Part shown: in pieces, positions 24,479 to 51,450 of the stretch
Layout of the letters: every line of letters begins with the position of its first letter
How positions within the stretch are numbered: the first letter of the stretch is position 1
Assembly: GCF_964204645.1 (NCBI RefSeq)
Contig: NC_134026.1
Span: 13,080,050 to 13,144,049 of the forward strand
Origin: Tubulanus polymorphus
Taxonomy: Eukaryota > Animalia > Nemertea
Reading direction: 5' to 3'
Length of the DNA: 64,000 nucleotides
Made by a program: the position numbers and the translations under genes
Notes under the pieces: model-generated
What the model was told of the DNA's origin: nothing
Databases searched by the model: none
The model's input: only the letters and a program-made list of their open reading frames with translations

Positions 24479-24529
24479 GTCCGTACCTACTGATTTGAAC
24501 CAAAGGCAGCAACAACCACGATTTCCACG

Positions 24530-30961: not shown

Positions 30962-31435
30962 AGCTATATTTTCATTAGTTACTGTATCATATTATAAACA
31001 TACATTTGATAATCTATAACCCATATGTTTAATTACCCTCAATGAAACTATTTCTTTACAGGTGCAAAAGTTATTTCGAATATTAAAATATCGAATATCG
31101 GCCAACATTATCTACAACATAATTATTATTATCACCAGATAATTCTATATCAGCTGATAAATAAATACTATTCGGAACATTAAAAGTATTTAGTGTTAAT
31201 CTCAGAATTCTAACATATAAAGTTTTATTTGGATTAACATTACTAGGATCACGAGTAATTATATGATGACATCTTTCTGCTTTAATTGCACAACATATTC
31301 TAGAATTTTTTGAAGGATCTATATATTTTCCATCCACCATTTATTAAGAAAAAAAATTACTGATTTTTTTACTATGTTTACTAATCCAAAATTGATAGCA
31401 CTTACAACTGAGATTAAAAATAAAATTATATGTTC
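30962..31435 (-). pseudogene. Relic of a second, diverged Polinton-like element: end of the membrane-protein gene plus deleted major capsid gene
   Basis: YVRILRLTLNTFNVPNSIYLSADIELSGDNNNYVVDNVGRY and FEITFAPV..MGYRLSNVCL match the capsid gene at 38381-39628; the upstream sequence matches 39690-39755. Confidence 0.9.
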
Positions 31436-33449
31436 AACAGTGAATCTAGTACAGTATCCCAATCACATAAATATGCCTTTCAGTTATCTGTCTTTTCAGG
31501 TAAAATCTTGATTCAGCACCTAACACAGTAAAAGCTAATGGAAGTTATTGCCTTACGAGCAAGTTATCATTCCCTTTGATGGCAAGATGGGCTTGCAAGT
31601 TTATCAAAATACAATACATGTAATAGGTCATGAAGGCGTTCTTCATTCTCTTCACTCTACCTACTCCTTACCCAACTTACCAGTTTACCTACTACCCTAC
31701 CTATATTGCAGGATGCATTAGATGCAAGTACATGTACCTTTTTAATGACAAATGGAGGTCTTAGGCCATCTACATCAGGTGAAAATTTAGAGGCAAGGTC
31801 ACTATCACTTGTAGAAAGGTCACTGAGGTAGATGATCGGTGACTGTGACCTGAGGATGAAACTCCATGTTAATGATTATGACACATAAAGTATCTAAGTA
31901 ATAGCTTTGAATATTGACTCACTGAGTTCAAAATGTTTTCAATTACAATCCAATTACAGTAATATATACCTAGTTCGATCCTTCATCCTCCTAAAACATG
32001 ACATTCGCACATGTACATCATCCTTTAAGTAAAATAATTCACAAAGATTAAGACTTACACTTGATCAAAATTTCAATATGCAATCCCTCAAAACATGACC
32101 ATTACCTCACAATAAAATGTCTGGAAATTTTTCTTTCAATGACATAATATACTGTAGGGTTTGCCATTTATGCATGAACACGTGAAGTCTGAAGGGAACA
32201 CCCCCTGCTGCAAGTGCGGTCCTTTTTCAAATTTAGCTCTGCTCTAAGGTTCTTTTTAACAAAACTAGAGGACCAAAGGTCCCGAGGCTCGAGATATGTA
32301 AGCTCGATCAACAAAATCGTTGTTGGTATGGATTTATATTTGCCTTAGATACGATAACAGGGGTGGAGAAATGAAGGTATCGTTTTAACCATGGAGCATG
32401 TTTAATCCATATACTATCAAGTTATACTTACTACCATGACCACAGGATACAGTTTGCTTTCGGCACAATCGCCAAGAACCCATGACATAGGTCAATGACC
32501 ATCCAGTCCATGGGGTACAAGCTTAACGTCCATGTGTTAACATGGTTGTTTTGAAGCTGTTCACTGACTAAACCAAAGGCCAACTACTAGTTGTACCCTT
32601 AGGGCCAGGAGCTAGTCTAACGATCGACCAAGTGGAACAGAATGAATATTTCACCAGCAGTCTCATTAGAATTCTTGAATGATATCTAATCCGAACGTGA
32701 AACTAAACAGGCCACAGTCGAGGTTAAAACTACTTAATGGCGAAATTAAGTCTACACACCTTTTTTGTTTTTAATGGTTTCACAATAGAATAATTTAGTA
32801 AAAGTAGTAAAAATCGTGAATAATATTTCTTCACTGACTCAAGACCTTTTTGACAAAACGAGCATGTGGATTGTAGCCTATGCGGGACCCGCACTGTAAC
32901 GCGCATTATCATTATTGATACATACACGGTGAATGCCCTGTGTATAAGGCAATATTGCTGATGGGACATCCTCCCTTGGCAGGGATTCAAGCCTGATGGC
33001 ATCGCTACACTCAGCCACAGCACGTCCAGTGGCAATCTTGATGCCATCAGGTGTGAAATGTTATGCCATCAATGTTATATATGCGCACTCTCATCATCAC
33101 TGTGCCGCAAACTAAATACACATGGCATATTTCATTATATGATGTATCGATTCCGTCACGCATGTCTATGGTGAAAAATGTACATATAATGTATAATATA
33201 TTCTCAATGCATGTCTTATAGATTGTTATATACCGGTATGTCATTTTCATGAATGAATTTTATTTAAAATTCGTGCGGACGCAATTTTTTGACGGAAAAT
33301 TTTACTGCACTATGTGGACTTGCATTGTTTTTGATAAAATCACCCATGTTTGACATACAATTACTCCATTGAGAACGTTCTTTAAAAACAATATAAAAAA
33401 AAACTAATCAAATTTGGTAACAAGGAGCCTATCGGCTTATATAGCTCCG

Positions 33450-33828
33450 CTGTGTGATTTGAAGAAATGCAAGCGACAAGACACTACTCATCCCTGTGTG
33501 TTCTATTAACGACTTCATGGGAGCACCACATCCAAACGCCATAGCATCAGCGTAATTTCTTCAGATACAAATCATGATTTTCATGCTGTAAATTATTATT
33601 TCCACTAAGCTTATGCCTTCTTGACCGCAACTACCGAATTTGAATTCGAAAAGATTTTGATTTTTTCGGATGGCTGTTCATCCCAGTTTAAAGGTAAAGA
33701 TGCCTTTGGTGACCTAGCTCTTTCTGGTCTCTTATCAGACGCCATTATTACATGTCTTAACATGGAAAAGGAGAAGGTGACAGTGAAATTGGTGTCATGA
33801 ATAATTGCTTAGATCGAGCTATCGCGTT
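33450..33828 (+). pseudogene. Sola(2)-like transposase, 5' part (interrupted by the Polinton-like element)
   Basis: FSDGCSSQFKGKDAF and HGKGEGDSEIG motifs; the frame ...LDRAIA continues after 51051 as FGKVIIKHAQDMYDYC. Confidence 0.7.
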
Positions 33829-33914
33829 AGTAATAGGAAATGTGTTGTTTCATACCGGAGGTCGAAGGTCGAGACACCACTCATCACCAAGTAATTTTTT
33901 CCCTAATAAATGGG
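33829..33914 (+). repeat. Left terminal inverted repeat
   Basis: agtaataggaaatgtgttgtttcataccggaggtcgaaggtcgagacaccactcatcacc... is the near-perfect inverse of 50957-51045. Confidence 0.95.
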
Positions 33915-34234
33915 AGATAGAAAAGCATTCTTAGCAACAATAAATAACAGAATAAAACCAGCAAAAAAACAATTTGAAATAAAAAAGTTAATTGATGTTA
34001 CAAAAGAAATTGAACATAAAATATTAAAATTAGAAAAGATAAAAACTAAATATGGAGAGAAAGTATCAGCGAATTTAAGCTACTGTAATGTTAGTACATC
34101 GCGAGAATTTACAGTGTGTTTACCTGATAAATGGGTTTCATTGAGTACAGAGGAATTAAAAGATTTAGAAGGATTTAAAATAATGAAGACGGAAAAAATG
34201 AAGACGGTCATCATGATTTAGAAATTGTTGATTA
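33910..34234 (+). CDS. Small Polinton protein with TKYG...VCLP motif, unknown function
   Basis: ORF 33910-34221 begins at TAAATG inside the TIR; probable frameshift near the C-terminus. Confidence 0.65.
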
Positions 34235-34884
34235 AATAAAAAATAAAAATAATGAATATCTAGAATCCAAAATGACCTTAGTCGTTTTACGAACAACTAT
34301 AATCATGCTAGCCAAACATCTGTTACATGTTATTATAAGAGAGTACTTCATTTGAATATTGATCGATCAAACAGGTGTTGCAATTCAACGTTGTTGTTAT
34401 ATTGGATAGCTAGCAGTTATATAATAAGCGCGCAGTACATACAACACACACAGGATACATTCTCTCTCTTGTGATTAAAAGGAATATTTCAGTGTTTTTA
34501 AGGTAAGTTTTAGCAAAATTGCCCTATCCTCGACCTACAGAGTTTTCAGGGGATAAGCATCCCATTATTGAAAGGCGCCACGGGACGCTTATCCCCAGTC
34601 ATTTCTACACCCCCGCGACCCACGTCATCCGGGATCTCCTTCAATGATCAGCAGAAATCACATTAAAGGCGCCTAATGTAATTTCTACCAATCTCGAAAT
34701 TCGAAACCGACGGAGAAACCCGGAGAGTGGACGAAGGTGCATTTTCAAAATGCCTCTGCTGGCCAGAGCTACTCCAGTGCTCGAATGAATTGCCTTATAT
34801 ACTTAGCTAAAACACCTAAGTAAATGTTGTTGGTGTTTACTAAAGAAATATATGAAATTTGAAATTATAAATTATTCCGAATGA

Positions 34885-35385
34885 AAAGAATATAGGAATG
34901 AAAACTGATAAATGAATTATGGATTTTTAACTTAATTAAGATATAATTTTTAATCAAATTAGTAATCAATTATCCATGTTAATTGATTAACAAATTCAAA
35001 TTCAAATATTCATTTTAGCATCACACCCAGTGCTGCCATCTTTCAATTTAAGAATAAACTAATAATAAGAAACGACTGTAATACAATATTCAAGTAAAAA
35101 CTTCAAATTAAAATTAAAATAAATTAATAAAAATAAAGAATATAGGAATGAAAACTGATAAATGAATTATGGATTTTTAACTCAATTAAGATATAATTTT
35201 TAATCAAATAAGTAATCAATTATCCATGTTAATTGATTAACAAATTCAAATTCAAATATTCATTTTAGCATCACACCCAGTGCTGCCATCTTTCAATTTA
35301 AGAATAAACTAATAATAAGAAACGACTGTAATACAATATTCAAGTAAAAACTTCAAATTAAAATTAAAATAAATTAATAAAAATA
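34885..35385. repeat. Near-perfect 250-bp tandem duplication in the Polinton non-coding region
   Basis: tataggaatgaaaactgataaatg at 34891 and 35141, colinear throughout. Confidence 0.95.
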
Positions 35386-35410
35386 ATGAATATCTAGAAT
35401 CCGAAATGAC

Positions 35411-35869
35411 TTATCTGGACAATTTAATTGCTCCGCATAGATAGACAAAAGTAGTGTCAATTAAATTTAAAAAATTATTTTTTTGCTTTTTTTCTAAAAT
35501 ATTAATCCATTTTTTTATTATCAATTTTGGAATTTCAGAAGTATTTTCATTTTTGATAGCAGTTGTTTCAGAATTATAAATATCATGAATTTTATTTGAT
35601 TTCTTATACCAATTACACCCAATAAAAATGAATACAATTACAAATCCAACCGTAAAATATAGACATTTATCAAATATTCTATCATTAGAAGGAGTAGAAA
35701 TAACAATATTTTCACTATTTTTATTAACATTTTTATTACTTATTTTTTCTTTTACAGCTTTTTTATATTCTTGTGATTTAATTCCTAATTGCCGAGACCA
35801 TTCAATTTGTTTCTGTGATCTCGGTTTTTTCTTTACAGTTAATTCCTTCACTTCTTCCACCTTGTTCAT
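35411..35869 (-). CDS. Polinton protein with basic N-terminus and one TM helix
   Basis: 152-aa ORF, TAAATG start, hydrophobic LYFTVGFVIVFIFIGC. Confidence 0.65.
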   Translation of the reverse strand: MNKVEEVKELTVKKKPRSQKQIEWSRQLGIKSQEYKKAVKEKISNKNVNKNSENIVISTPSNDRIFDKCLYFTVGFVIVFIFIGCNWYKKSNKIHDIYNSETTAIKNENTSEIPKLIIKKWINILEKKQKNNFLNLIDTTFVYLCGAIKLSR

Positions 35870-35874
35870 TTATT

Positions 35875-36405
35875 ATAGAAATATTTTTACTTTCAATATT
35901 TGAAAATGTTATAACTCCAGTTGATAATAATGTCATAAATCCACCTAATTGAAATGATAAATATCCAATCCATTTATTTAATTCAGTCATGACTAAATAA
36001 TCATTTTTTAAATCAGCATATAATCTATTTTCATCTTGAATTGGTAGTATTTAATTACATAATTTACTATAACCTTTTACTACATTTTCTGATATCGCGT
36101 CATTAATTCTAGCTGTTCTCGCGGCTTCATAAATCTTAAATAATCTAATAATTTCATCTGAGTTCATTGTATCTAATTCATTATGTTAAATTTTTACCGA
36201 TAAAATTTTTACATTTTCCAGATGCTATTAATATTTCTAATTGATGTTTACAAAAAAGATAATATTCATAATTATTATTTGTTGTAACATTATTTAAAGC
36301 ACCATCATCTGGAGTTAATTTTGTTTCTGTTATTCCTAAATCATCTAAAGTTTTTTCAATTGGAACATCACTTTTTTTAGATTTTATTTTCTTTTCACCT
36401 CCCAT
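35875..36405 (-). pseudogene. Polinton hypothetical protein disrupted by stops/frameshift
   Basis: ORFs 36181-36405 and 35802-35990 are joined by coding-like sequence (NELDTMNSDEIIRLFKIYEAAR...); TAAATG start. Confidence 0.6.
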
Positions 36406-36437
36406 TTATATAACAAACAAATTAGTTGTGTTGTTGC

Positions 36438-36612
36438 AACTAGAATTCAACTAGAATGTAACTAGAATTCAACTAAATTAACAAGCTAGTTGAAATATTG
36501 ATGTTTTTATTTATTTCTTGTTAAATCTAGTTGATTTTTGTTCCAACTACTAATAACTAGAATTCAACTAGAATGTAACTAAAAATATACTAGATTAACA
36601 AGCTAGTTGAAT
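36438..36612. repeat. Intergenic 11-bp AACTAGAAT(TC/GT) repeats in two ~117-bp blocks
   Basis: aactagaattcaactagaatgtaact at ~36438 and ~36555, each followed by aacaagctagttgaa. Confidence 0.8.
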
Positions 36613-37221
36613 TTAAATAAATTCATATTTAAATGGGTGTTGTAATCTAAATAGTAATTTTGATCTTTTAATATTTTTCAACTTATGCATATATTCATTA
36701 TGTAAATCATGTGGAATAATATCATTTTCTTCAAGCGCATTTTTCATCGATTTTCTGTCTTTATTGTAGAATAAAACTAGAAATCTAATGTTTTCTCTAA
36801 AGTCTTTAACAATTGAATCATATTTTTGATTTAAAACACAAGTTGTTATCCTAAAATGTCTGCCAGAAAAAGCTAAATAACATAACTCACTCTCTCTAAT
36901 TTTTGAATCATGTAAATTTGCACAATCATCTATAATGAATAATGTATTTGATCCTTTATAAATATCTATTGCTATTTTAATACAATTATCTAAATTTTCT
37001 TTTACTGTTTTAGGATCTAATATAATAAATTTATTATTTCTAGTAATATTTCTATCATAAGGTTGATTAAATTCATATGTTGGACAAAATAATACTATAT
37101 TATCAAAATAGTTTTTATAAACAGTTTCTAATAAATTTAATATAAAATAAGTTTTTCCACAATTTGTAACGCCAGAAATTAACATATTATGAGGCTCAAA
37201 TATAAATAATTCCTTATTCAT
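36613..37221 (-). CDS. A32/FtsK-HerA-type genome packaging ATPase
   Basis: Walker A GVTNCGKT, Walker B LFIIDD, GRH motif, downstream Q sensor; intact 202 aa. Confidence 0.92.
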   Translation of the reverse strand: MNKELFIFEPHNMLISGVTNCGKTYFILNLLETVYKNYFDNIVLFCPTYEFNQPYDRNITRNNKFIILDPKTVKENLDNCIKIAIDIYKGSNTLFIIDDCANLHDSKIRESELCYLAFSGRHFRITTCVLNQKYDSIVKDFRENIRFLVLFYNKDRKSMKNALEENDIIPHDLHNEYMHKLKNIKRSKLLFRLQHPFKYEFI

Positions 37222-38350
37222 TTATAAATTTTTAATTTTACTTGATAATATCCATTCATTGAATTATCTGGCCATCCAACCCATTTTACTAAAGAATATT
37301 TTTTTCTTTTAATAGTTTTTGTTTTTAATACTTTTTCAATTTTATATTCTTGTTCTAGATTTTCAGTAGTTAAACTCAATTCTTCTTCATAAAAATACCC
37401 ATCAACTTCTTCACTATCTAAATCTTCTAATTTATAGACATATGGTTTTGTTGTTATTACCTTTTTTATTTTATATATTTCTCTAGTAAAATTTCGATCG
37501 TATCCTTTATCAAATATCTTTTTATACTTAGAAATTCTAACATTTTGACCAACTTTAGATTTAGGTTCACCAAAATCATCTACAAGAAATGCTCCATATA
37601 AATTATTCCAAACAATTTCAGCATTTTCAGGTTTTCTAGCATCAATAGGTTTCATTCCAATAGAAGAATGATAAGAATTATTATAACCTTCTATCAATTT
37701 TGGTAAAACATCAATCCATTTAAAAGTATTATTTGCTGTAAAATATTTCCACATTCTTGTTCTTAATGTTCTATTAAATCGTTCAACAACTGCTGCTTTT
37801 TTGTCCGATTTTGTTGAAAAATATTTAATATTATGATTGTCTAAGAGTTCATGAACAAGTGAATTATCAAATTCTTTTCCATCATCAAATTGTATTTTTT
37901 TCTGGTTTTAGTTTATCATCCGAAAGAAATTTTCTTAAAACATTTGATGTTTGTACAGCATCTTTTCTATAAAGTGGGAAGCTCCATACATAACGACTAA
38001 AAATATCAATTATATTCAATATCCACCAATAATCATCATTATCTTTCTTAACATTTTTCATATCAATTAAATCTCCTTGCCACTGTTGATCTACATAACT
38101 TACCATAGTTTTACGAATTTTATATTTTCTAACAATTTTTTTATGTGTTGTATATGTTGGTTGTTCTAACATAAATTCATTTATATCTTTATATCTAACT
38201 AAATTTTGTGGGATTATCTTATCTAATTTATCTTGTTTTACATGACGCCATATATTTTTGTTAGAAGAATAAGCAACCGAACTCTCAGGGTTGTAATATA
38301 AATTTCTTAAATATTGTTCTTTAGTATTAGAAGTTTTTTTTACCGTCCAT
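37218..38350 (-). pseudogene. Retroviral-like (RVE) integrase with C-terminal chromodomain; frameshifted at homopolymer runs
   Basis: LYYNP, QWQGDLIDM, IDIFSRY, QFDDGKEF, KAAVVERFNRTL, YHSSIGMKP, LVKWVGWP; frameshifts near 38335 and 37895. Confidence 0.93.
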
Positions 38351-38380
38351 TTATATATCCTTAATTTTAACTTTATATTT

Positions 38381-39628
38381 CTAATATTGAATACTATCTA
38401 ATTGTGAATTTACAATATTTAATTGTGCGTCAGATATAATATAAATGTGCATTTTAAAATTTAAGCTTCCTTTTTTCTTTTTCATGAATAATTGTATTCC
38501 ATCTTTAGTGTTCTGTAATTTTTTCCCAGAACCATGTAATGAATTATCCTCTGTTGTTCTAAAATCTAACCATAATGCATATCTATTACCGGTATAATAA
38601 TCAATTTGATTAATATCACAATTTTCAGATGATTTCACTTTTTCATTCATAAAATGTTTTCTAATTTCTTGCCATTGATCTATCATTCTCATTCCTTGAC
38701 AAAATATTTTATTTGCTATTCCTTCGATAGCTATTTCTACTTTTGTTATTTCAGGATTATAATAATTATCTACCTTTATTGCACCATTAGAATATGTTGC
38801 AATGGTAAAAAATATTAATATACCTTTAATAGATCTTCTTGGGAAGTTAATATTCTCATTAATTATTTCATCATTTGCATTAATAGTTACACTTTTAAAT
38901 TTATCAATATAATCATATAATAATGAAAATCCTTGATTGTATTGTGTTTGAATTGTGTTAGCAATATTTTCATTAGTTACTGTATTATATTCTAAACATA
39001 TATTCGATAATTTATAACCCATATCTTTAGCAACGCTAGATAATACAATTTCATTTACAGGAGCAAATGTTATCTCAAATATAATATCTTCTTGAATTAC
39101 ATATTTATATAAAGGTGCATTATTATTTGTCAATTCAAAATCTAATGGAATTTTATATTTGCTTCCATAAATCTTTTTAATCAAATTATCTACGTCATTA
39201 GTTACTACTGCATTATTGGCTTCAGATCTTAATTTATTTTGGTTTTCTTATTGGATACCTTGAAATATCATATTATTTCTATTTTCTTTAGTTAACCATA
39301 AATCTTTATAACGCGCAAATAAATTATAATCATCTAATGAGAAAACTGTTTCTGGTCCAATCTTTATAGTTAATTTTTTAATCAAATATCTTCCAACATT
39401 ACCGACAACATAATTATTATTATTACCAGTTACTTTTATATCGGCTGATAAATAAATACTATTTGGAACATAAAAAGTATTTTGTGTTAATCTAGGAATT
39501 CTAACATATAAAGTTTCATCGGGATTAATATTTGAAGGATTATGAGTAATTATATTATGTGATCATTCTGCTTTAATAGCATTAGATATTCTAGAAATCT
39601 TAGAAGGACTTATATAACTCGCACTCAT
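38381..39628 (-). pseudogene. Putative double-jelly-roll major capsid protein (one stop, one frameshift)
   Basis: ~415-codon beta-rich frame (NPSNINPDETLYVRIPRL, YKIPLDF, YKLSNICLEY, INENIN, YALWLDFRT, LHGSG, HIYIISDAQLNI) next to the integrase and ATPase; resembles capsid ORFs of invertebrate Polintons (from memory). Confidence 0.75.
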
Positions 39629-39648
39629 TCATTTGACAAAAAAATTAA

Positions 39649-41106
39649 TTATTTATTTTTTATTATTTTTTCTTGATATCTTTTTGATATCATATTCACT
39701 AACCCAAAAATAATAGCACTTACAACTGTAATTAAAAATAAAATAATATGTTCAGCAGCAAAGTTAATAATGTTTCCTGCAGATTTCAATATAAAACCAA
39801 CAATTGATGCAATAACTCCGGGCAATGCTGCAGCAGATTTTTTAGATATTTGCCATAAATATTTTGCAAATTTCTTTAAACCATCCTTAACTTTATCTTG
39901 TATAGAATTATTATCATTCGGGGATTTATCCGGTTTATTGGGAGTAGGAGTAGATAACAAAGAATTTGATATTGCTAAACCAATTGTTGTAAATAACATA
40001 GTTACAGCTGTTAGAATTGAAAGAATTGTGATTCCTTCTAATTTACATAATAATTTTATTCTATCTTTCAATGATATTTCAGAATTTGGTTTTATCAACA
40101 AATCTTTAAAAATAACTTTTAATCTATTAATATTATAATCATATGATTTTAATAATGATTTAATTTCTTCTTTTTGTAATTCTAAACTATCTTTTAAATT
40201 ATTAATTTCTTTTTCTAAACGTAATTCTTTTTGCCTATATTCCATTTCATCAATTACTTGACGATCAAGATCAGACTTTAATTGTTCTATTTCTTTATTT
40301 TTATCGGTTAATTCATTTTTCTAAAGTTCTAATTTTAATATCTCTTATACTTTTATTATGTGCAATTTTATCAGCTTCATTTCTTATACTAATAATTTCT
40401 CTAATTGCTTCATCAGAAAATATATTTAAATCTTCTAATTGTTGATCTGTTGCATCAATTAATCCATTCGGTAAAAGTTTTTCAATTGGAACCTTATTTG
40501 ATTCAAGTTTACTAGTTTTGGAAGTTATATTCTGTTCAGAAGTAGTTTCTGTTTCTGTTTTCTTTTTGATTATTTCAAATAATTCATTCTTTGTTTAAAT
40601 ACGTCTATATCATTATCAGTTAATTCTTGTTTTATAACATCAGTTATTACATTACTATTACTAATTCTTTTAATTCTATCTGGATCTAAAATACTCAAAG
40701 TTGATTTTGTTAATATTTTATTTTTATTATTTTTATAAGTGATATCAATATAATAATCACCTTTCAAATGATAATACCATTTACCATTATTTAAAAATTT
40801 TAATTGATCTGCTAAAGGTCCAAAGTCTTCATCATTTATATTAAGTTTAGAATTTTCAATTAAATGTTCTAATTTAGGTATTTTGTTTAAATTATCTAAA
40901 CCTTGTTTTACTAAATCTGGGTCTAAATTTTCAGGATTTAATTGTGATTCTGCATTTTTAATATAATCAGGTATATTTAAATTATTATTATGTCCTGGCT
41001 CATTACTGTCATAAAAACTTTTTTCACTAAAATCAGATTGTTGTTCATCAGTTATGCCAGGTTCATCAAAATTATCCATTCCAATATCTTCACCTTCTAC
41101 ATCCAT
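39649..41106 (-). pseudogene. Coiled-coil plus multi-TM Polinton protein, split by frameshift
   Basis: ORFs 40570-41106 and 39649-40245 with coding-like linker; hydrophobic GITILSILTAVTMLFTTIGLAI and C-terminal helices. Confidence 0.65.
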
Positions 41107-41128
41107 TTATATAATAAAAAAATTAAAA

Positions 41129-42400
41129 TTAAAAATATAATATTCCTCCTATAACAATTCCTATACAAGTTAAAGCTAATTTAGTATTTTCATGGAATTT
41201 ATTATCATTATCAGTTTTAATTATTTCATGTTGAATATTATCAGTTTCAATATTTTCTGATGTATTATAATCCGGTTTAGAATCATTATTTAATTTAATA
41301 TTCTTAGTTTTAGTTTCTGTTGATTGAATGATATTAAATGAAAAAAAAATTAATCCAAATGAATTATTTATTGTTGCAGTTTTAATTAGATTATTATAAC
41401 CAATTCTAATTCCCATCTTTAATACTAAATCATTAGAAATAATTAATAGATTAGGGCCTATACAATAATTTAGTCTTACATGAGATTTATCTAAATAATT
41501 TTGATATCTTACAATGTTTTCTAGAATAGATCTATTTTTATCATTATGAATTGAATCTTCAAATAATACTTTGAACTGTTTCTGCGCATCGAATGAAGTG
41601 TTATCATTTCCAACTATTGGTGATCTTGTTTCAACTTGCGCACCTAAAATACATATCAAATAAGTTCTAATAGATTGATTTATTCTTTGTACACCTGATT
41701 TTGTAAAACCTTCACTATTTTCTAAAATGAAATTAACCCAACCATAATTGTTTTGTTGTTGTATATTATTATAATATTTTGGTAATTCATTCCAATTTAG
41801 TGTTCTTATATCTGAATTTGTTATTATTTTTCCAAATTCTTTAGTATATAATATTCCTAATCCGCCCATTGTACCAATTTTTGCTCTAAAATCTTTATTT
41901 GAATTAATATTAAATTCATTACATATTTTATAAAACTTAGAAAAATTAATATTATTATTCAATTCTTTAAAATATTTTGAACCTGGAAAAGGACATTCTA
42001 ATTCATCTAATATTAATTTGATTTGAAAGTATGTATGAAATCTAAAAAGTGATAACATCAATGGTAAACTTGGTTTATTCAAATGATCATTCGAACTTAT
42101 TCCACATCCTGTTGTTGCGCAATAAACAGCAAAATTTAATTGGTTCTGCCAATACTTCATATTAGATTTTAATAACCATTGTTTTGCCTCATTTAAATTT
42201 TTAAAATTAATTGTATACACATGAAATATATTTTCCATCTTAACATGAAAATTATTACTTTCAGTAACATAAATAAATAAATCAATTAATGAATTTAAAA
42301 CTTCATTTCTATATGTAATATCTTTATTAAAATCTATTGCTGGAATATTATATTTAATTGATTTATTATATTGGAAAGCTTTTGGAAAACTATCTACCAT
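41129..42400 (-). CDS. 423-aa Polinton protein with C-terminal membrane anchor, unknown function
   Basis: Intact ORF, WQNQLNFAVYCATTGCGIS motif, TAAATG start. Confidence 0.8.
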   Translation of the reverse strand: MVDSFPKAFQYNKSIKYNIPAIDFNKDITYRNEVLNSLIDLFIYVTESNNFHVKMENIFHVYTINFKNLNEAKQWLLKSNMKYWQNQLNFAVYCATTGCGISSNDHLNKPSLPLMLSLFRFHTYFQIKLILDELECPFPGSKYFKELNNNINFSKFYKICNEFNINSNKDFRAKIGTMGGLGILYTKEFGKIITNSDIRTLNWNELPKYYNNIQQQNNYGWVNFILENSEGFTKSGVQRINQSIRTYLICILGAQVETRSPIVGNDNTSFDAQKQFKVLFEDSIHNDKNRSILENIVRYQNYLDKSHVRLNYCIGPNLLIISNDLVLKMGIRIGYNNLIKTATINNSFGLIFFSFNIIQSTETKTKNIKLNNDSKPDYNTSENIETDNIQHEIIKTDNDNKFHENTKLALTCIGIVIGGILYF

Positions 42401-42416
42401 TTATATAATAAAAAAA

Positions 42417-42836
42417 TTAATAATCTATTAATTCTTTTAATAATTTATCTTGTTCTTCAACTGTTATACGGCCATTTAAACTTATTATATAATCTAGTGT
42501 ATTCTTTAATTTATTAATTTCTTTTATATTAGTTTTAATTTTTTCTTTATTACTTTTTATATTTAATTTTGAACTTATACCGGTTAATACACTTGATGAT
42601 AATCCTAATACGCCAATTGATATAGCTAAAGGTGTTAATGGACTGAATATTGCTAGAAATGTTATTACATAACTAATTGTAACCGAACCACTTATAATCA
42701 AATAATATATAATTTTAGATTTTAAATATTATTTCTTTTTAACTTTTAAATCATTTTCAAATTCTAAATATATTGTTAATTTAGCTTTATTTATATCATG
42801 AGGAATGATATCAATATTATCAACTTTATCTTCCAT
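42417..42836 (-). pseudogene. Small membrane protein (probably frameshifted; real start ATG at 42836)
   Basis: ORF 42417-42701 is hydrophobic; upstream TAAATG start at 42836. Confidence 0.6.
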
Positions 42837-42855
42837 TTATTTAGCAAAAAAATTA

Positions 42856-43278
42856 CTAATTAGTAAATTTATAAGCAACAAATATAACAATAACTGTTCC
42901 GCCTAAAATCCAAATTATTTCATATTTCTGTTGTTCTTTACTTGGGGTATAATAATCTGATAATTTAGGTTTGTATAGATGTAATTTTTCTTTATTGGTT
43001 ACTGCGTTATATAAACTCATTGCATCATCAACTGATTGAAAATCTATATGTGAAATTTTCTGATCATATAATTCCTTGTTAATATAATCCATATAGTTTT
43101 GTCTTTTTTCTCTATATCCTTCTGCTGCTTTATTGTATTTCTCTAATGCTAAGTTATGTCTTTTTTGTTCTGTTAATGATCGATTTTTATCAATATGCTT
43201 AAATAAATAACCGCCGCCTGTATATGCTAAAGCGTTAACAATTGCCGATCCTATAATAGTTATAACTGCAGAAGCCAT
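42856..43278 (-). CDS. 140-aa protein with N- and C-terminal hydrophobic helices flanking a coiled coil
   Basis: Intact ORF MASAVITIIGSAIVNALAYTGG...EQKRHNLALEK; TAAATG start. Confidence 0.75.
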   Translation of the reverse strand: MASAVITIIGSAIVNALAYTGGGYLFKHIDKNRSLTEQKRHNLALEKYNKAAEGYREKRQNYMDYINKELYDQKISHIDFQSVDDAMSLYNAVTNKEKLHLYKPKLSDYYTPSKEQQKYEIIWILGGTVIVIFVAYKFTN

Positions 43279-43520
43279 TTATTTAGCAAAATAATTATGT
43301 ATATGGGAGGAATATATTTTTGTTTTTCTAAATAATCAATTGTTAAATTAGATAAAGTTACTGCTAATGTTAATTTTAAAATATCATTTATATCAAATCT
43401 ATCAACATTAACACTTCCCCTTTTGAATACTTTTTTTAATACCATTGAATAACCAACCGTTCCAACTGATAGCAATGCTCCATTATATAATCCAGTTTTT
43501 ATCCACTTATTATCACTCAT
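43260..43520 (-). CDS. Small hydrophobic Polinton protein
   Basis: 86-aa ORF, TAAATG start. Confidence 0.65.
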   Translation of the reverse strand: MSDNKWIKTGLYNGALLSVGTVGYSMVLKKVFKRGSVNVDRFDINDILKLTLAVTLSNLTIDYLEKQKYIPPIYIIILLNKWLLQL

Positions 43521-43529
43521 TTATTTATC

Positions 43530-44640
43530 AACCAGAAATTAACTTTAAAATGTAGAATTTCTGGGATAAGCTAATGTGGAATCGAAGTTTTAAGAAATTT
43601 GGGGAATTATGAGACTTGGCGATTGGGTAGATGATACAGTCTTCGACTGGTCTAATTTAAAAAAAAATTGTCAACTTGTGACCGACTTCGATTTACTTTT
43701 GCCTCTAAGCTGGTCTGCAACTTCATTGCCTCCATGGTTGAAGAAAGAGCTCTTCTGATGTCTGCTTCATCATGACTTCGAGCATATCGTGTAGCCAGCC
43801 GGCCCGGTCACGGGGCCCGGTTTGGCTGTCACTCGATATCCTAGACTTGAGTCTGTGTTGAAGTAGACATTGTCATTTAAAGAACTTATTAATGTTATTC
43901 TGTATGAATTACCCGTGTGTCTTGTATTTTGTATTTTCTTAGTTTAAAATTTGTAACTTAATTGAATTTGGGAATTTTATCCCGGAATTTCAATGTAATA
44001 AGGATCAATAAAGTATTGAATTGAATTGTCACCTTATACACATGCCATCAGTGGACGCGGAGCCGTATATGACAGCTATGCTATTATAAATTGCTAATCT
44101 CATGAAACCTGCATACCCCTAATGTCAAACATATTTTCTAAAACATTTGAATATTGAAATTATATGTTAACACGTTTTTATATAGACCGCTTGTAGCCGC
44201 CGATGAAATTCACGCCGGCCCAACTCAGATCGTAGATAGCTTCGTCATTCCACCAGCATCCCCATGACAGGGTCTGACTTTTATATCAGACTTCCAAATC
44301 GTGTATACATCCGCCATTTAACCGAATAATCTGATTTACTTATCATTTCTATTTATGCCTGCCGCTCCTGATATAATCATGCATCATTTACTATTACAAT
44401 ACGTCTTCTCATGATATTCAATGCAATATAACATTCCGACGTTCAAATAGAGGTCATTATATAATCACAGGGAGCCATTCTACATCTTTATCAATAATAT
44501 TTTGCCTAATGGCTTGTATGTGTACACATAAACCTGTGACGTTTTGCACATCGATTTGCGGTTGTCGTTTGTAAAATGACGCTGAATGGTTAGCATTGTT
44601 AAGGTTTCATTATGGTAACGTTTTATAAGGCGTCAAAAAA
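43530..44640 (+). mobile_element. Non-autonomous Helentron-like insertion, copy A, inside the Polinton
   Basis: Higher-GC 1.1-kb block homologous (inverted) to 51451-52591; AAC(A/C)AG 5' end, AGGCGTCAAAAA 3' end; inserted in an A-run. Confidence 0.75.
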
Positions 44641-44645
44641 AATTA

Positions 44646-44960
44646 CTATCTTCAAAATATTTAGTTAACTTATTTATGATTAAATCAACATTTATTTCAT
44701 TACTACTTTTATGATTATCATATATTTTGGTTTATATGTTTTTAATATCATCAATAATTCCATCTTCATTTAATTCATAATATTCTAAAGATTAAATCCA
44801 TTAATTTTTCTATATTACAATTTTCTTTATTAATCATTGATGCATTGTTAAATGATTTACTTTTTATATCAGTAATTACATCATTTAGTTTAATTCTCAT
44901 TTCTTTACCATGTTTAAAATCAAACCCAAAACATATACTCGGCCCAACAGTTATATTCAT
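44646..44960 (-). pseudogene. Small Polinton hypothetical gene
   Basis: ORF 44775-44960 with canonical T-tract/TAAATG start; coding-like sequence continues past the stop. Confidence 0.5.
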
Positions 44961-44977
44961 TTATATAGTGAAAAAAA

Positions 44978-45735
44978 TTACTCTCTACATCTTATAACTA
45001 ATTCATAAATTACAGGGAAATTATTTAAATCAATTAAGTATCCATTGTGATTTCTAATTTCTAATTTAAAATTATTAAATTTAGGAATGCATGGTTTGAA
45101 ATCACATTCTGTTAAATTATAATTTATTTGCGTTCCAAATTCTTTAACATTCTTCAATGGTAAACTGTTTAGTAAACCAGAATTACAAGTTATATCTTTA
45201 GTTGCTTCGAATGTTTTTGTATGATCGATTAAATTGAAATAAATATAAAAGTGTGTAAAAGGTATTAAGTTTGGTGTAGCATCAATATTTGTAAAAGATT
45301 TATCTGGAGGAATTCCTAACAGTTTAGCTATAGGTTTTTTACCATAAATGCATGTTTTTCAATATCAGACAACCTTATCTTTATTTTGTTAGAACTCTCA
45401 CCTTTAAAAAATCTAATATTAAACCCGGAATTATTACCTGACTTGTGCCAGGCTTTTCTATTAATTTCTTGTGCCAATGTATCTAAATTATAAAACCCCG
45501 GTTTTAAATATATATAGGCCCATTCATTTTTGTTTTTATTAAAAATTAAAAAGGCTCTATGTTCAACAGTTTTATCCGTTATATTATAAAAAGAATAACA
45601 TAAACTTATATTTACTAATCTTAAATCTACACAATTTTTATATTCCCAATCTAATTGAACTAGTAAATTATGAGATTTAGAATTTGTAAGTCTTCTAGAA
45701 TCAACAAATATTCTGTATTCTTTTAATTCACCCAT
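44978..45735 (-). pseudogene. Putative minor capsid (penton, single jelly roll) protein, frameshifted near 45330
   Basis: N-terminal IFVDSR..LVNISLCYSFYNI..PGFYN; C-terminal FKLEIRNHNGYLIDLNNFPVIYELVI, typical of Polinton/virophage pentons. Confidence 0.65.
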
Positions 45736-45803
45736 TATTTATAACATAAAAAAATTACCGCTCATCACTAAAAATTAATTTTAATAAAATTTTTCGTAAA
45801 TAA

Positions 45804-47000
45804 ATGGATGAGAAGATACCATGCGAAATTTGTGGTGAACTTCTAAGAAAAAGTAATATGGCTCGACATATGAAAAAACATGATGAAAATTATAAACCCC
45901 CTAAAATAAACTGCCCAAAATGTAATAAATTATTCTCAAGAAATTATGTTAAAAAACATTCAGAGAAGTGTAAAATTAATGGCGCAACGGCTAATGTTGA
46001 TAGTAACGAAAGTAATAGTAATTCTGTTGAAGTTAAACCTGAAATTATTTGGAAAAGACCTTTCTTATTCTATGACAAGGATAATATAAAAGATCATATC
46101 TGCGAGCCTTGTCGAAAAAAATATAACCCTGAAAATATAGAAGATTGGGAGAATCATCAATTCCGTAAAGTACATATAGATAAAATTTCTAATAAATTTG
46201 AAGCAGAATTCAATGAAAGAAAAAATAGTTTATTAGAAAAAATAAAATATGAGAAAACGTAACCAGATAATAAAGAAACAGTTGAAAAGTTAGAAAAACA
46301 ATATAATGAATTAACAAGAAAAACATATCATTGTAAATATTGTAAATTGATTATTACAACAAGTAATTCAAATCTGAATAATAGAACAATAAAACATAAA
46401 GAAAACGTAAGAAAATACCAGGAGCTTAATGAAGATCTATTACCAATAAATTATAAACAAAAATGCCCACAATGTAATTATGCGACCTTAAGGCAAGAAG
46501 GTACTGTGTTATTTTGTAATGAATGTGGATGGCAAATAAATTTATGGGGTGAAGAAAAAACTAGAGATTTTCTCATAGAACCAAAATTAAATTATCTAGA
46601 TGAAATTTTTAAAATATTTCCTGTAGAAGATCATACACCAGAATATATGCAATGGCTTGAAAAAATGAAAATGATAGAAAATAAAAATGGTGAAATAACT
46701 AAAAAAGATATTATAAAAACAAATATTCCATCAACATTGAACACAAAACAAAAGAAAATGTATTTATATTTATTATTTAACGATTATTATGAAAAACCTA
46801 AATCAACAGAAGAAGATATGGAAAATATAAAAAAAAACATTCAAACAAATATTAATGTATCATTTGGAAAATAGAATAACAGATTCAATTAATTATGAAT
46901 TCTTTTTAAATAAGATTGTAAATTATCTAAACATCGATATTATAATTCCATTTGACGAATTAACAAACAAAAAGAAACAAAGAGAGCGAGATGAAATGTG
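45804..47000 (+). pseudogene. C2H2 zinc-finger array fused to a VLTF3/A2-like late transcription factor domain; one stop, one frameshift, C-terminus cut by hAT insertion
   Basis: ORFs 45804-46262 and 46347-46874 are in the same frame; Zn ribbon CPQC-x14-CNEC; after removing one A in the run at ~46830: TFKQILMYHLENRITDSINYEFFLNKIV. Confidence 0.7.
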
Positions 47001-50000
47001 CAGGGTTCAAAGCTTCCATGACCTATCTGATTCAATGACTTTCCATGACCTTTTCAATCCCAATTCAATGACCTCTCCAACCCTAATTTCATATCTGAAA
47101 CCCCGAGGAATGACCATGAAACGACAAACTTAACTATAAAAGAACAAACGTTAAAAAGACAAATTATTAATTTGTTAGAATATTAATTTTATTTCATAAT
47201 TATATACTCATATACTTCATGGTGCAGACAAATGATTAATCTTTTATTTACATAAACCTAAACCGGTAAAGCATTGATATATCAAAGTAACATCTTAAAG
47301 TCCTTTTAGTGCTTCTTGTTTTTTATCAATAAGTTCTGAAATGTCATTAATTTCTGCACGTTTATCATTGGCCGATTTGCGGAATGACACTGATTTCGTA
47401 ATCAGTGGACGAACATCTTTTAAAGCTGTTGCCTGTTCTGCTTGCTCAATAAACTTATTTGCGGAGGTGGTGAGCGACTCGATGTCAATTTCAAGCAATT
47501 TCTTTTTTCGTTTTAATTTCTCCAATTCTTCACATTCGGCTTTACGCTTAATACCCCTAGCACTTTTTTCTGAATCAGCCTTACATTTCTCCAGATAGGC
47601 CTTGTACTTCGAATATGCCTGAGATGCGGAAAGAAGTAACTCCTTGGTAATTTGTACTTTCAGCACACCACCTACGGATCGAATGTGGTCTACAATCATT
47701 CTTTGAGCTTCATACGATTCATTAGCTAGGTTTTCAACCTCGATCTGCTTATTTACCGAAAACCCTCTCTCTACAGAAGCCTGCCCATGAGATAATAACA
47801 GCAGGTTGCTTATAACTGACCATAATTTATCAAATGATGAATTGCATTGCATATGTTTATGATAGAAAGTATCTAATCTATCTGTTTTTTTGTTGAAGCT
47901 CACAAAATCCGATTTAGTTTTTACGACTACGCTATTGATGAATTCGTCCATTTGGTTTAACACGGTATCACAATCCGAATCATCTATATGATTCGAGCTC
48001 GACAATGAACTTATTATTCTCTGGAACTGAGCGCGACTTTGGTCACAATTAGCGGCAAGCTCGTTCGGATTTAAACATACCATATTTCTAACCAAAGAAT
48101 ATTGGATCGGCGCTTTGGCTATTATTTTATCCACTAAACTGATAAGAAATTTTCGAGTGTTCATTCTCAGATCGAGAAACTGGCGCTGACTTGCTTTTCC
48201 AACTGCAATAAGTTCCTTAACTTTTGCCTCCGCGATAAATCCGATGTCGATTTTAGAATGAACGCAATAATTCGATTCCTTTTTTGTATCTATCTTGATC
48301 AACTTAGTGAGAGTATCTGCTTCCCGAATTATATCACTTTTGATGAATCGCTTCATCAGTAATCGGAGAACATTATGTATGTCTTCCGCCAAAAATGGCA
48401 GCATTGGCCTGTCCGTCTGGTAGATGGTTAAGAACGGTGTAACTGTTTTTGCAATAGATACATACGCACGCAGTCTCGGCAATACCATATCAGATGACGC
48501 TAAGTCTTTTATGTATAAATATGGTTTCGATGTCGGTATGTTAGCCTTTTTCAAAGTTTGAACGTGCTCCACAAATTTTATGATATACGGCCATAGTTCA
48601 ATCGCACGTTCTGCAGCTGGCAGGTTATCCAGCCATCTAAAACAAAAATAGAAATGTTGAGTTTAACTGCTAACATACGGCAAGGAGATAAAACAATAAT
48701 TGATAACCAGGGTAATTTGGATTGCCTAATTAAGTACATGTATTTTAATAACAACTAAAATCCAATTCACTTACCTAGTAGAGCAAAATTTATATGGAAA
48801 CTTCTGACTACCAGTGACCTCAGTAAACATTTCTCTTCTGACAGGAGCATCTTTGAACAAATAACGCAGGTTGATAAGAAGTGACTCCAAATCCCAGTCA
48901 GTAGCATGGTCGCCGGCTTTAAAGGCATTATGCATGACATGTAAGCCACAGCTGCCTATGTTCAGAATAGACTTTCGAGTATTACACATACTTGAAATTT
49001 CTTGTTGCAACAATTCATAAAATTTCCAATTCACATTTGGACCATCCATGGACAGTTGATAAAGATTGGAGTAATTGAGATCTCCAAATGTGTCCATAAA
49101 TGAATGCAGCATATCGTCTGCAGTCGCTCGTCCAATGAAGTCTGAACCGTAATACGAAGACCTTACTACATCATGGTCCCAGAACCTAATTAACACATCC
49201 AACTGTTTAGTTTGCGTACGCTGATTCAATGATTCGTCGAATAGTAACACGTATTGTTGGTCTTTGATTTTCCGTCTCATCAGATCCTTTACATGTGGCA
49301 TAATACCAAAACGAACTAGATATGCTGCTTTCTGTTGACTAAGTGAAAACATCTCGGCTATTTGACTGTCTGGAAAGCATGCCTTAAGTATGTCATTCAT
49401 TCCAGAACAGGAATTGTAACTGTGGTGATTGTTTATCATATTCCAAGCATAAATTATCTCGGATTTCAGGACAGTATCTTTTGCAATATATGAGTCCATT
49501 ATTGGCCTGCAAAATAAAAATAATAATTGTAATAACTAACATAGTTGTAATAAATTCAATTGTAAAATATTAACAATTCTGTATATTAATGATTAACTTA
49601 CCTTGATGTTTGACGATTACTTGCTGTCAAAATACTGCTTGTTGTATTACTCGAAAACATGTTAGGAATACCTCTTGTTGAATTAGCCAAGGTCATCGAT
49701 GACACATGGAGTTTACTTTTAATGTGACTTTTCAAAGCAGCCTCTCCCATATTTGCGATGCTGAAGTTCCGAAGACATTTTATACATCTGGCTTCATATT
49801 CTGATTTTGTTTTTCCTATCCAAGGACTATAATCCTCATGATTAAGCCAGGAATCTTTAAATCTACACTTTGCGGGCATACTGAATATTTCTTTAAGGAC
49901 TGAACTCTGATGGATGTTTCCTCATGCAGATGCAATACATATCTAATGAAAGGCCCAGTTTTGCTAGGCCTATTATTTAGTTTCAGAGCTATTGTAAGAT

Positions 50001-50150
50001 TAATAATTAGGAAAAAATTTTGAATGAAATATTTAATAAATTAACCATGTGAAATGCATTGTTCTAACAGACCCAGTTTATGTCATTTAGAAATTAATCA
50101 CAGTTATATATGTTATAGGTAGGCATAAGTAGAGTCTGAACACTGAAACG
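47001..50150 (-). mobile_element. hAT-superfamily DNA transposon nested in the Polinton (one end not recognisable)
   Basis: Terminus CAGGGTTC at 47001 with subterminal (T)TCCATGAC / CAATGAC repeats; transposase gene; no matching TIR/TSD found near 50150. Confidence 0.8.
47295..49879 (-). CDS. hAT transposase, 3 exons (49879-49602, 49506-48775, 48636-47295), ~783 aa, apparently intact
   Basis: Two phase-2 GT-AG introns restore the frame; N-terminal Zn finger, LLFDES, SMDGPNVN, SCGLH, TRW, QASVERGFS motifs. Confidence 0.88.
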
Positions 50151-50158
50151 CTACTGAT

Positions 50159-50961
50159 TTAACTGCTAATTACCAATTTCATTACAATTGTTATTACTGG
50201 AGATCTCGTATATTTTTTCTGTCCATCTGCTGCGTAGAATCCAATGAAGAACCATTTTCTAAAATTATATTTTGCATTTAATACATAATCTGGTACTATC
50301 TTTTCTTTAGTTGAAGTATTACTTTTCACTATTGCATGAATATAGAATTCATCACTATATTTTATAGCAAAATCTTTAGGATTATTTACATGTATTCTAT
50401 AAACTGCTGATGATTTCATAACATCCATGATTCTAAATTTTTTATGTGAATAAACTTCTTCGCAGAATTTCTTAATTCTTTCTAATAATTTTAAGTCTTG
50501 ATTGCATAAAAACCAACAATATTTATTACCCCAAACATAATTATACACACCTGCTGAACCATCGCCCATGAAAAATCCTTTGATAAAATATTATAAATAT
50601 ATTATCAATAAATTTTTATAATTTCTATATTATAAATATTATCAATAATTTCATCGAATGACATATGATTCATTCAAATTTTGATGGTGTTTTTGTGATT
50701 CGAGATGTCTATTATAATTCCTTTTTACTATAAATTCATTACAAACTTCACATTTTATTTCATCCACATTCATATCATCTAATCGTTCTATTCTTTCATT
50801 TGTATTATCTAGTTTTCAAAATCTATTACATTTTTTATAAGATTTGCAGTTTTTTCATGTCGTGATTTTTGGGATTTATCGATGTATTTTTTACAATATT
50901 GGCAATAATATTGATTTTTATTAACATTATTATTTTCTGGCTGGTGTTCATTCTCCCCCAT
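50159..50961 (-). pseudogene. Zinc-finger region followed by a two-motif LAGLIDADG endonuclease domain, degraded and truncated
   Basis: Start MGENEHQP at 50961; CQYC..H and CEVC..RHLESQKH fingers; then FIKGFFMGDGS and FFIGFYAADG about 110 aa apart. Confidence 0.65.
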
Positions 50962-51045
50962 TAATTAGGAAAAAAAATTACTTGTGGTGATGAGTGGTGT
51001 CTCGACCTTCGACCTCTGGTATGAAACAACACATTTCCTATTACT
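50957..51045 (-). repeat. Right terminal inverted repeat
   Basis: Inverse of 33829-33914; ends CCTATTACT, followed by TSD CGCGTT. Confidence 0.95.
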
Positions 51046-51450
51046 CGCGTTTGGTAAAGTCATTATCAAACATGCTCAAGACATGTACGATTATTGTAAT
51101 AACTGCCTTGTACTCAATGATGATTTGACCAAAAGATCTTACATTTACGTGGGTGTCAATGACGGCGATCGTGATAGGCCTCTGGCAAGTTCAGTTAAAA
51201 CAGTAAACGGCAGCAGAAGATTGCATGCATTTCGTAAATGTGGTGATTGGACGCTGTAAGTTCGAGACTTCAGCTGTTTTTGTGATTTCTGTGTAGGTGT
51301 TTCGCAGATTGCGCAACACTGTGTAAATTCCGAGAACGTTGGGGATTTCGCCAAGTGAAAACTAAAACGTCACAATGTATGTTTATAATATATCCTTAAT
51401 TCATTCAAGTATCCCTGAGAAAGTCCATTCTTTGTAGGAAAAAAAATTAC

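Follow-up and report, generated by a model that had tools for sequence, protein, structure and literature searches.

Structure and gene content of the integrated element

The window, by which we mean the whole 64,000-nt stretch of Tubulanus polymorphus DNA that was analysed, contains an integrated, decayed copy of a multicopy Polinton-like virus. The element is bounded by 61-nt terminal inverted repeats (33829..33889, beginning with AG, and 50985..51045) that are 98% complementary, and the repeat homology stretches to approximately 90 nt, taking in a promoter T-tract; at the left end this inner extension, to about 33917, holds the T-tract promoter of the first gene. A 6-bp target duplication, CGCGTT, flanks both ends (33823..33828 and 51046..51051), as is typical of Mavericks/Polintons, and in the reconstructed empty site the host reading frame stays open and in frame through the insertion point. 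The element-proper segments have a GC content of 23.8%. Both the repeat-and-duplication boundaries and the strong AT richness had been recognized in an earlier note on this DNA, which was silent on the decay of the copy and on its three nested inserts, together approximately 5 kb. The first (about 34242..35410) is an inserted or duplicated segment with a 35-nt direct repeat at its borders and a 250-nt tandem duplication inside; the second (43548..44640) is a 1.1-kb host repeat with an A-tail, of which an inverted copy with 93% identity lies at 51451-52547; and the third (about 47001..50145, minus strand, right end approximate) is a nested host DNA transposon with transposase-like frames lacking a Pfam match and with no target duplication seen, occupying the place where the window copy lost element sequence. 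Read depth in the element arms (2026 genomic run from another study; region 45700-51400, which lies outside the capsid/integrase core) was approximately 57 times that of the flank, and read depth and loose ends revealed that other copies run on into sequence absent from the window copy. In one further run, guessed to be RNA, a single 35-nt piece aligned, which carries no weight for or against expression. Outside the repeats, a separate fragment of a related element (30962..31459, minus strand) comprises the 5' part of a capsid gene with a T-tract and TAAATG.

Stops or frameshifts interrupt the capsid, integrase, candidate minor capsid, VLTF3-like, and other genes. The first ORF (33910..34221, plus strand), encoding 103 aa of unknown function and 69% identical to the first ORF of the closest relative, L001, starts at TAAATG, as do, on the minus strand, a membrane-type ORF with an orthologue in L001 (35411..35869) and a conserved gene of approximately 206 aa with one frameshift and one stop (35802..36405). 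The A32-type packaging ATPase (36613..37221, minus strand) retains an open frame and a TAAATG start and lies above the Pfam cut-off (PF04665, E 2.6e-13). Frameshifts and a stop break the rve-chromodomain integrase (37218..38350, minus strand), in which the rve and chromo matches fall under the Pfam cut-off, whereas those of the L001 orthologue, 73-76% identical to the window copy, exceed it (rve E 1.5e-10, chromo E 1.2e-6). The double jelly-roll major capsid gene (38381..39628, minus strand) has two in-frame stops and a start 1 base off TAAATG; the model of an intact homologue (pLDDT 90) matched double jelly-roll capsids in Foldseek (E 7e-17). The packaging ATPase, integrase, and capsid-like gene named in the earlier note were thus all corroborated. 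The capsid family gave weak Capsid_N matches in 24/62 members and none to PF21738, which we take to be the capsid profile covering Maverick/Polinton groups 1 and 2 (0/62 members at E 0.05; 0/5 genomes at E 0.1, run without a positive control); the label Mavpol group 2, first favoured from pPolB/SF1 variation, was therefore dropped.

Also on the minus strand and starting at TAAATG are a broken coiled-coil/membrane gene (39649..41106; 485 aa in L001), a conserved 423-aa gene of unknown function present in 40/80 related loci (41129..42400), a two-TM gene with one stop (42420..42836), the L001 orthologue of which is weakly SLATT-like (E 0.001, below cut-off), a conserved 140-aa membrane-type gene (42856..43278), a small hydrophobic gene of 86 aa (43260..43520), and a small ORF with an N-terminus resembling a 126-aa gene of L001 (44775..44960). 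A candidate minor capsid gene, proposed from size and position only (44978..45735, minus strand), is frameshifted and has TAAAT 1 base further upstream. Near the right end, the LAGLIDADG endonuclease remnant noticed earlier (50159..50590, minus strand) has a weak Pfam match (E 0.004) and Atlas support of 0.93, and a broken zinc-finger ORF (50654..50961, minus strand) runs from the right-repeat promoter with a start 1 base off TAAATG. That these two pieces once began an intein-bearing polymerase now lost is a guess, unsupported among the loci. The LAGLIDADG match in L088 was a 15-residue chance match in a locus without such an ORF, and in a dNK scan a single 37% match did not identify a donor. 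That no polymerase is visible holds for the window copy but is unsupported as a trait of the system, since a fragment of pPolB is present in the clade member L005 (tblastn E 1e-52); because of this fragment, the absence is probably a deletion. Relatives with the same capsid module carry pPolB or SF1 helicase. IMG/VR scans with the terminal repeat, the capsid, and the VLTF3-like protein gave no match.

The zinc-finger and VLTF3-like gene (45804..46998, plus strand) starts at TAAATG, contains a stop and a frameshift, and has its 3' end cut off. A VLTF3-like domain in this element is probable, with moderate support: Atlas favoured it (0.93; 27/30 matches in Pox_VLTF3 clusters), as did Foldseek, in which poxvirus VLTF3 took ranks 1, 2, and 4 (best E 7e-3, on a model of pLDDT 56), but Pox_VLTF3 (PF04947) scored 20.2 bits on the window piece against a cut-off of 25 and had no Pfam match in three intact orthologues, which puts the earlier assignment on a weaker footing than the earlier note gave it. 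The gene escaped a profile built from three giant-virus VLTF3s, word-index searches returned zero homologues, and a HMMER search returned one true orthologue. Among the related loci, the gene occurred only in the window element and one other element family (L001, P0113 cluster), the remaining clade loci being short. PLV clusters also hold VLTF3-like genes, and stony-coral polintoviruses have already been published with VLTF3, as the accessible part of PMC11131425 states; the gene alone therefore does not imply a helper, and its presence in an animal Polinton is not new.

The TAAATG start motif across the clade

Our comparison of start codons revealed TAAATG at 12/15 gene starts of the window element, the integrase start (38350) being chosen partly by the motif, against 21/443 other ATGs (Fisher p 9e-13). 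The earlier note had described nearly all genes as starting at a T-tract plus TAAATG and had set enrichment over the AT-rich background as a test beforehand; both agree with these counts. With first-ATG starts, L001 showed the motif at 15/15 starts versus 22/388; in this count its split integrase is represented only by the upstream half, and short antisense frames are excluded. T occupied positions -14, -13, and -12 in 14, 12, and 11 of the 15 window starts, with a peak 10 nt upstream, and this spacing agrees with that of vaccinia late promoters, in which a conserved T lies 10 nt upstream of TAAAT according to the available text of PMC11980589. Counts of T5NT (19 on the coding versus 53 on the non-coding strand) track strand A-skew and were unused.

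At orthologous starts, TAAATG was present in 28/28 cases in the clade L001-L011, compared with 5/179 in 69 outside loci; several clade loci have a common dataset prefix, so that the loci amount to fewer than 11 independent samples, and the motif counts as one evolutionary event. The capsid clade received an SH-aLRT of 99 in a quick tree including 10/11 loci. The base at -3 was T in all 28 clade starts, and a Kozak-like purine in 156/179 outside starts. Base composition was rejected as the cause of the motif, since clade members with 30-44% GC retain it (18/21 ORFs) and AT-rich outsiders have it in only 1/24 cases; stop-start coupling was likewise rejected, the motif coinciding with the stop codon of the upstream gene in only 1/46 cases. 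Replication/integration, structural, and accessory genes have the motif in common. From these comparisons, the start motif is a non-random, clade-wide initiator resembling that of vaccinia late genes, the reverse of the Kozak context of the sister lineages.

The motif might be a relic of a former helper-dependent life, present copies being inert or spreading within the genome only, an idea with which the decay of the window copy, the loss of the exact motif at 3/15 of its starts, and the lack of an IMG/VR match to the repeat sequence would agree. We consider it very improbable, as the motif is exact at 28/28 starts over capsids only 42-84% identical, and also at those accessory genes in which one member differs from another, a pattern pointing to continued selection in the clade.

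Proposed transcription by a helper virus and competing readings

The clade is probably a Polinton-like lineage of animals that relies for its transcription on the RNA polymerase of a helper nucleocytovirus rather than on host polymerase II. Under such a scheme, the integrase would have inserted the element genome, and integrated copies would be mostly silent until infection by the helper, when its late machinery may initiate within TAAAT at every start codon, yielding mRNA that is probably leaderless or carries a 5'-poly(A)-leader. The VLTF3-like zinc-finger protein of the element could aid or redirect this late machinery. Genome replication would fall to pPolB, which the window copy has lost, and packaging into the element's own capsid to the ATPase. 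The earlier note had proposed a pox-like helper, and a pox-specific reading of the motif was rejected, because two contigs with invertebrate-iridovirus-type genes showed TAAATG at 18/38 starts with the same upstream profile. Three giant-virus bins showed it at 8/23, 9/20, and 8/22 starts; all five loci had been selected for holding one match each. The helper therefore need not be pox-like, and a candidate could be either poxvirus-like or iridovirus-like.

Autonomy in the nucleus, with host polymerase II and the element's own zinc-finger/VLTF3-like protein reading a compact promoter that resembles a viral late initiator, appears unlikely to us. Access to the nucleus is implied by an rve integrase that bears a chromodomain, the copy number is high, nuclear replication is described for the PLV TSV in the accessible part of 10.64898/2026.06.19.733378, and sister lineages that have this capsid module in common start their genes in Kozak-like contexts, suggesting that polymerase II use is probably ancestral. 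AATAAA within 60 nt of 12/14 L001 stop codons would be compatible with host-type 3' ends, yet is expected at 20% GC. Against these points stand the invariant T at -3, opposite to the purine of the relatives, the vaccinia-like spacing, and the architecture of L001, in which no TATA-box-like word occurs 25-120 nt upstream of 7/12 starts and intergenic gaps are often 3-20 nt.

A helper would also be unnecessary if the segment lost here supplied intact members with a cytoplasmic RNA polymerase of their own, as in yeast linear virus-like elements; in the pGKL elements, a polymerase encoded by the element itself uses a TAAAN initiator (available part of PMC6211774), and the window copy did lose a segment. 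ORF profile scans of the window element and L001 found no RNA polymerase gene, and the scanned ORFs of the clade contained neither a polymerase nor a capping gene. Transcription genes could lie in the approximately 3.7 kb of L001 that is unseen; at most this length, about one pPolB, is left after the known genes if two 16,883-nt records are one contig, as their equal length suggests. We regard this arrangement as very unlikely.

Transcription by a helper thus remains our favoured reading. A bolder version, put forward tentatively and less probable than not, holds that the whole integrating animal clade gave up host polymerase II for the late transcription of nucleocytoviruses, its members living as provirophages on poxviruses or iridoviruses of invertebrates, whose late machinery is hijacked by their own VLTF3-like factor. 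If true, dozens of copies in the germline could serve an animal as an inducible defence against viruses, the provirophage idea would reach from protists to animals, and the start motif would mark helper-dependent animal Polintons and indicate a helper virus not yet sampled.

Relation to known Polinton-like systems

The motif bears on the expression of animal Mavericks/Polintons and on their possible dependence on larger viruses; no virions have been observed according to the accessible portion of 10.64898/2026.06.19.733378. The clade-level shift from a Kozak-type to a vaccinia-late-type initiator offers a sequence marker separating probable host-transcribed from helper-transcribed lineages. 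The element shares AG-starting terminal repeats, the 6-bp duplication, an rve integrase, an A32 ATPase, and a double jelly-roll capsid with Mavericks/Polintons (Polintoviricetes, adintoviruses; PMC8502044, PMC4028283), as well as pPolB or SF1 helicase in relatives with its capsid module. It differs from them in its capsid profile matches and in having no cysteine protease or phospholipase among the ORFs scanned in the window and in the seen part of L001; TAAATG starts are not described in the literature searched. Cnidarian outlier Polintons such as Polinton-3_NV (PMC4028283, PMC10120064), compared by description, likewise have capsids outside the main Maverick-Polinton cluster.

The statement in the earlier note that similar PLVs are linked to insect poxviruses proved correct as to their existence, but their gene set is different. 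The entomopoxvirus-associated PLVs (AHEV_PLV1/2, CBEV_PLV1, Ca_PLV1; PMC11296320) are also small animal PLVs, proposed as nucleocytovirus parasites, and own a cysteine protease, phospholipase, and L2-mu, with a tyrosine recombinase or no integrase, whereas the window element, compared by description (supplement table S2), has an rve integrase and no Pfam matches to protease, phospholipase, or L2-mu. Their capsids measure approximately 365-375 aa, no VLTF is annotated, and the main text and supplementary tables of PMC11296320 mention neither promoters nor VLTF; they have physical evidence in occlusion bodies, which sets them apart from the window element. Stony-coral polintoviruses resemble it as animal elements with VLTF3, and the word promoter has 0 occurrences in PMC11131425, which contains no promoter analysis. 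Yeast pGKL1/2, Polinton-derived according to the available part of PMC11161782, share linear DNA and a pox-like TAAAN initiator and, unlike the window element, have no capsid, no integrase, and their own RNA polymerase (accessible text of PMC6211774). Mavirus, Sputnik, and the PLV Gezel-14T are integrating small dsDNA viruses with promoter motifs in common with their helpers, as given in the available part of 10.1101/2022.07.28.501842, and a motif of this helper-dependent satellite type, in common with nucleocytoviruses, is present in the window element and its clade. Those viruses have protists as hosts and promoters of the Mimiviridae type (AAAATTGA early, TCTA late), whereas the window element probably has an animal host and uses a TAAAT initiator.

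Integrity of the element and its gene content

Inverted repeats of 61 nt, 98% complementary, bound the element at 33829-51045, with the target duplication CGCGTT on either side. The interrupted host frame is continuous in frame over the empty site, and the boundaries are therefore exact, in keeping with the repeat- and duplication-bounded element of the earlier note. Nested foreign DNA accounts for about 5 kb of its length, namely a segment at ~34242-35410, a 1.1-kb A-tailed repeat at 43548-44640 (second copy at 51451-52547), and a transposon-like insert at ~47001-50145 without a target duplication. The element's T-tract promoter sequence occurs directly next to both copies of the 1.1-kb repeat. 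With the nested DNA removed, 12.0 kb remain at 23.8% GC, which agrees with the initial impression of a very AT-rich element. Relative to L001, an intact close relative among the metagenome loci, the capsid gene of the element is interrupted by two stop codons, and the reading frames of the integrase, candidate minor capsid, 485-aa, 206-aa, and two-TM genes are disrupted. The element is genuine, belongs to a Polinton-like lineage, and is decayed. Decayed BEL/Pao retrotransposons, which are mainly metazoan, lie on both flanks (24494-28826 and 53633-59013; DUF1759 E 8.5e-16, Peptidase_A17 E 9e-44).

The integrase, packaging ATPase, and capsid genes named from the sequence were recovered by profile and structure comparison: the element ATPase passed the Pox_A32 threshold (Pfam), the L001 integrase passed those for both rve and Chromo, and a capsid homologue modeled from a 62-sequence alignment (pLDDT 90.4) matched iridovirus and PBCV-1 capsids (E 7e-17, TM ~0.65), with BFVD structures also compared. 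There were 112 capsid homologues; PF21738, searched without a positive control, matched none of the 62 family members and none of five relative-holding genomes. Relatives were confirmed in 360 metagenome stretches, and among the best 80 of these 360 the capsid was common to all, the ATPase was present in 65/80 and the 423-aa gene in 40/80, other genes were shared as well, and distant relatives carried pPolB or an SF1 helicase. Between the window capsid and that of L001, identity is 73%. Capsid relatives also occurred in bacterial-labelled records (L081, L084, L085, and protein P0009), which are probably eukaryotic contamination of assemblies.

The TAAATG start motif and its origin in one clade

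The claim that nearly all genes start at a T-tract followed by TAAATG held on counting. Within the window, 12/15 gene starts bear TAAATG versus 21/443 of the remaining ATGs of these segments (p 9e-13) and 39/1659 ATGs in the flanks, so that the enrichment over the AT-rich background is real, and the three exceptions are each one base away. T peaks at -14 to -12 of these starts; in vaccinia late promoters, a T is conserved 10 nt ahead of TAAAT (PMC11980589). With short antisense frames and the downstream part of its split integrase set aside, L001 bears the motif at 15/15 starts versus 22/388 other ATGs. Promoter copies also lie at the inner ends of both terminal repeats (33829-33917 and 50954-51045), and each of them drives an ORF that points inward. 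Another fragment of this family, diverged in sequence (30962-31459, 2.4 kb beyond the left repeat), comprises the 5' part of a capsid gene with 75% identity to L001 and likewise has a T-tract and TAAATG. Non-coding sequence following the ATPase gene (36438-36611) holds a direct repeat of 57 nt that includes short units of the AACTAG type.

A quick capsid tree (60 rows) grouped L001-L010 as a clade (SH-aLRT 99), to which L011, too partial for the tree, was assigned by identity. Orthologous starts bear TAAATG in 28/28 cases in these 11 loci, some of which have a common dataset prefix, versus 5/179 in the other 69 loci, where -3 is a purine in 156/179. Across all ORFs, the motif was found at 44/50 clade starts, at 18/21 in clade members with 30-44% GC, and at 1/24 in AT-rich outsiders; it coincided with the stop codon of the upstream gene in only 1/46. 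The trait is one change on the capsid tree, in which Kozak-type starts gave way in this clade to a TAAAT initiator that overlaps the start codon, in an integrating, capsid-encoding element. Beside these counts, the idea that TAAATG is a relic motif appears very improbable, and transcription by host polymerase II, aided by a factor specific to the element, appears unlikely. Start contexts differ in AT-rich relatives that fall outside the clade: TATATA-ATG in L045 and L066 and TATAAAA-ATG in L052, L044, and L072. The former is similar to the late TATATA element of ASFV (PMC5294985), a hint that different lineages may be matched to different helpers.

The VLTF3-like gene and the missing polymerase

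The VLTF3-like gene reported earlier fared unevenly. In the window, its remaining piece scored 20.2 bits against Pox_VLTF3, below the Pfam cut-off of 25, and the intact orthologues matched neither Pfam nor a three-sequence giant-virus VLTF3 profile. These orthologues form one cluster, P0113 (697 aa, E 4e-34), whose N-terminus corresponds to the final ORF of L001. On the positive side, P0113 residues 320-525 scored 0.93 in Atlas (200/256 features), with 27/30 matches in Pox_VLTF3 clusters spanning Nucleocytoviricota and Preplasmiviricota. A pLDDT 56 model of the region ranked cowpox VLTF3 first in Foldseek (E 7e-3) and entomopoxvirus VLTF3 second and fourth, with no match below E 0.001. The gene probably encodes zinc fingers joined to a divergent, predicted VLTF3 domain.

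The observation that no polymerase is visible proved correct for the window copy, which has no pPolB, SF1, or dNK remnant, but not as a trait of the system, since L005, within the clade, carries part of a pPolB adjoining its capsid block. An RNA polymerase subunit was likewise not found in the element. In L001, a TAAATG-type promoter also precedes a deoxynucleoside kinase gene (L001:10340-10981; Pfam dNK E 1.7e-31). In a 2026 genomic run from another study (X5), of which ~12% was read and compared with 45700-51400 at 85% likeness, mean depth was ~261 over the VLTF3-like arm, 36 over the nested transposon, and 4.6 over the unique flank, an arm/flank ratio near 57 that refers to a short, shallow flank of 350 nt and to integrated and free copies alike. 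Depth drops sharply at ~47000 and recovers at ~50200, and loose read ends lie at both 47000 and 50674, from which it follows that other copies run on into sequence absent from the window copy; the polymerase absence is most simply a deletion. Where the VLTF3-like gene is interrupted by a stop, most reads disagree with the window copy. The bin over the right repeat had ~5x the depth of the arm, which suggests many more element ends or related families. Two 16,883-nt records carry an L001-type capsid and the VLTF3-like protein, leaving ~3.7 kb unaccounted for if they are one contig. That the element's own polymerase, in an unseen segment, transcribes these genes seems a slim prospect.

Candidate helpers and known systems

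Vaccinia polymerase starts transcription within TAAAT, and slippage adds a 5' poly(A) leader (PMC6211774; PMC5294985); virophages and Gezel-14T have promoters in common with their helpers (10.1101/2022.07.28.501842). From its start contexts, the clade would rather probably be transcribed by a co-infecting nucleocytovirus, and helper dependence of the lineage is plausible.

Scanning IMG/VR for the full motif gave 60 loci, each picked because it held one motif match; giant-virus bins ranked highest by share of TAAATG starts, together with two contigs (198 and 206 kb). These contigs (L098 and L100) encode MSV199, RNase III, XRN, SNF2, PCNA, and Bro-N, a set that we take to be invertebrate-iridovirus-type. 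TAAATG stands at 18/38 of their starts, about half, with a T-tract; A at -18 reaches 67% and T at -13/-12 61-67%, close to the 77% and 77-86% of the clade. Three giant-virus bins have it at 8/23, 9/20, and 8/22 starts. A pox-specific reading of TAAATG was rejected because these contigs use a similar profile and the bins share the motif, the pox side of the comparison coming from the literature. The "pox-like helper" of the earlier note becomes one candidate of several: a pox-like virus, an iridovirus-like one, or another nucleocytovirus could serve. The portions of the review literature consulted contain no description of T-tract plus TAAATG as an iridovirus late motif.

Among top-ranked matches in the open-access literature, no TAAATG promoter was described in animal Polintons, and no printed description of this well-controlled promoter signature was found. 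The literature covered also included further related work (PMC8502044, PMC11161782, 10.1101/2024.03.23.586382, 10.64898/2026.10.13.758929, PMC5499653, PMC10120064, PMC4028283, PMC8363768). VLTF3 is described in coral polintoviruses (PMC11131425) and in some PLVs, with animal elements outside the main groups (10.64898/2026.06.19.733378). The PLVs that the earlier note links to insect poxviruses do exist, having been found in entomopoxvirus occlusion bodies (PMC11296320); that paper offers occlusion-body evidence and no promoter or VLTF analysis, whereas the window element is known from its sequence.
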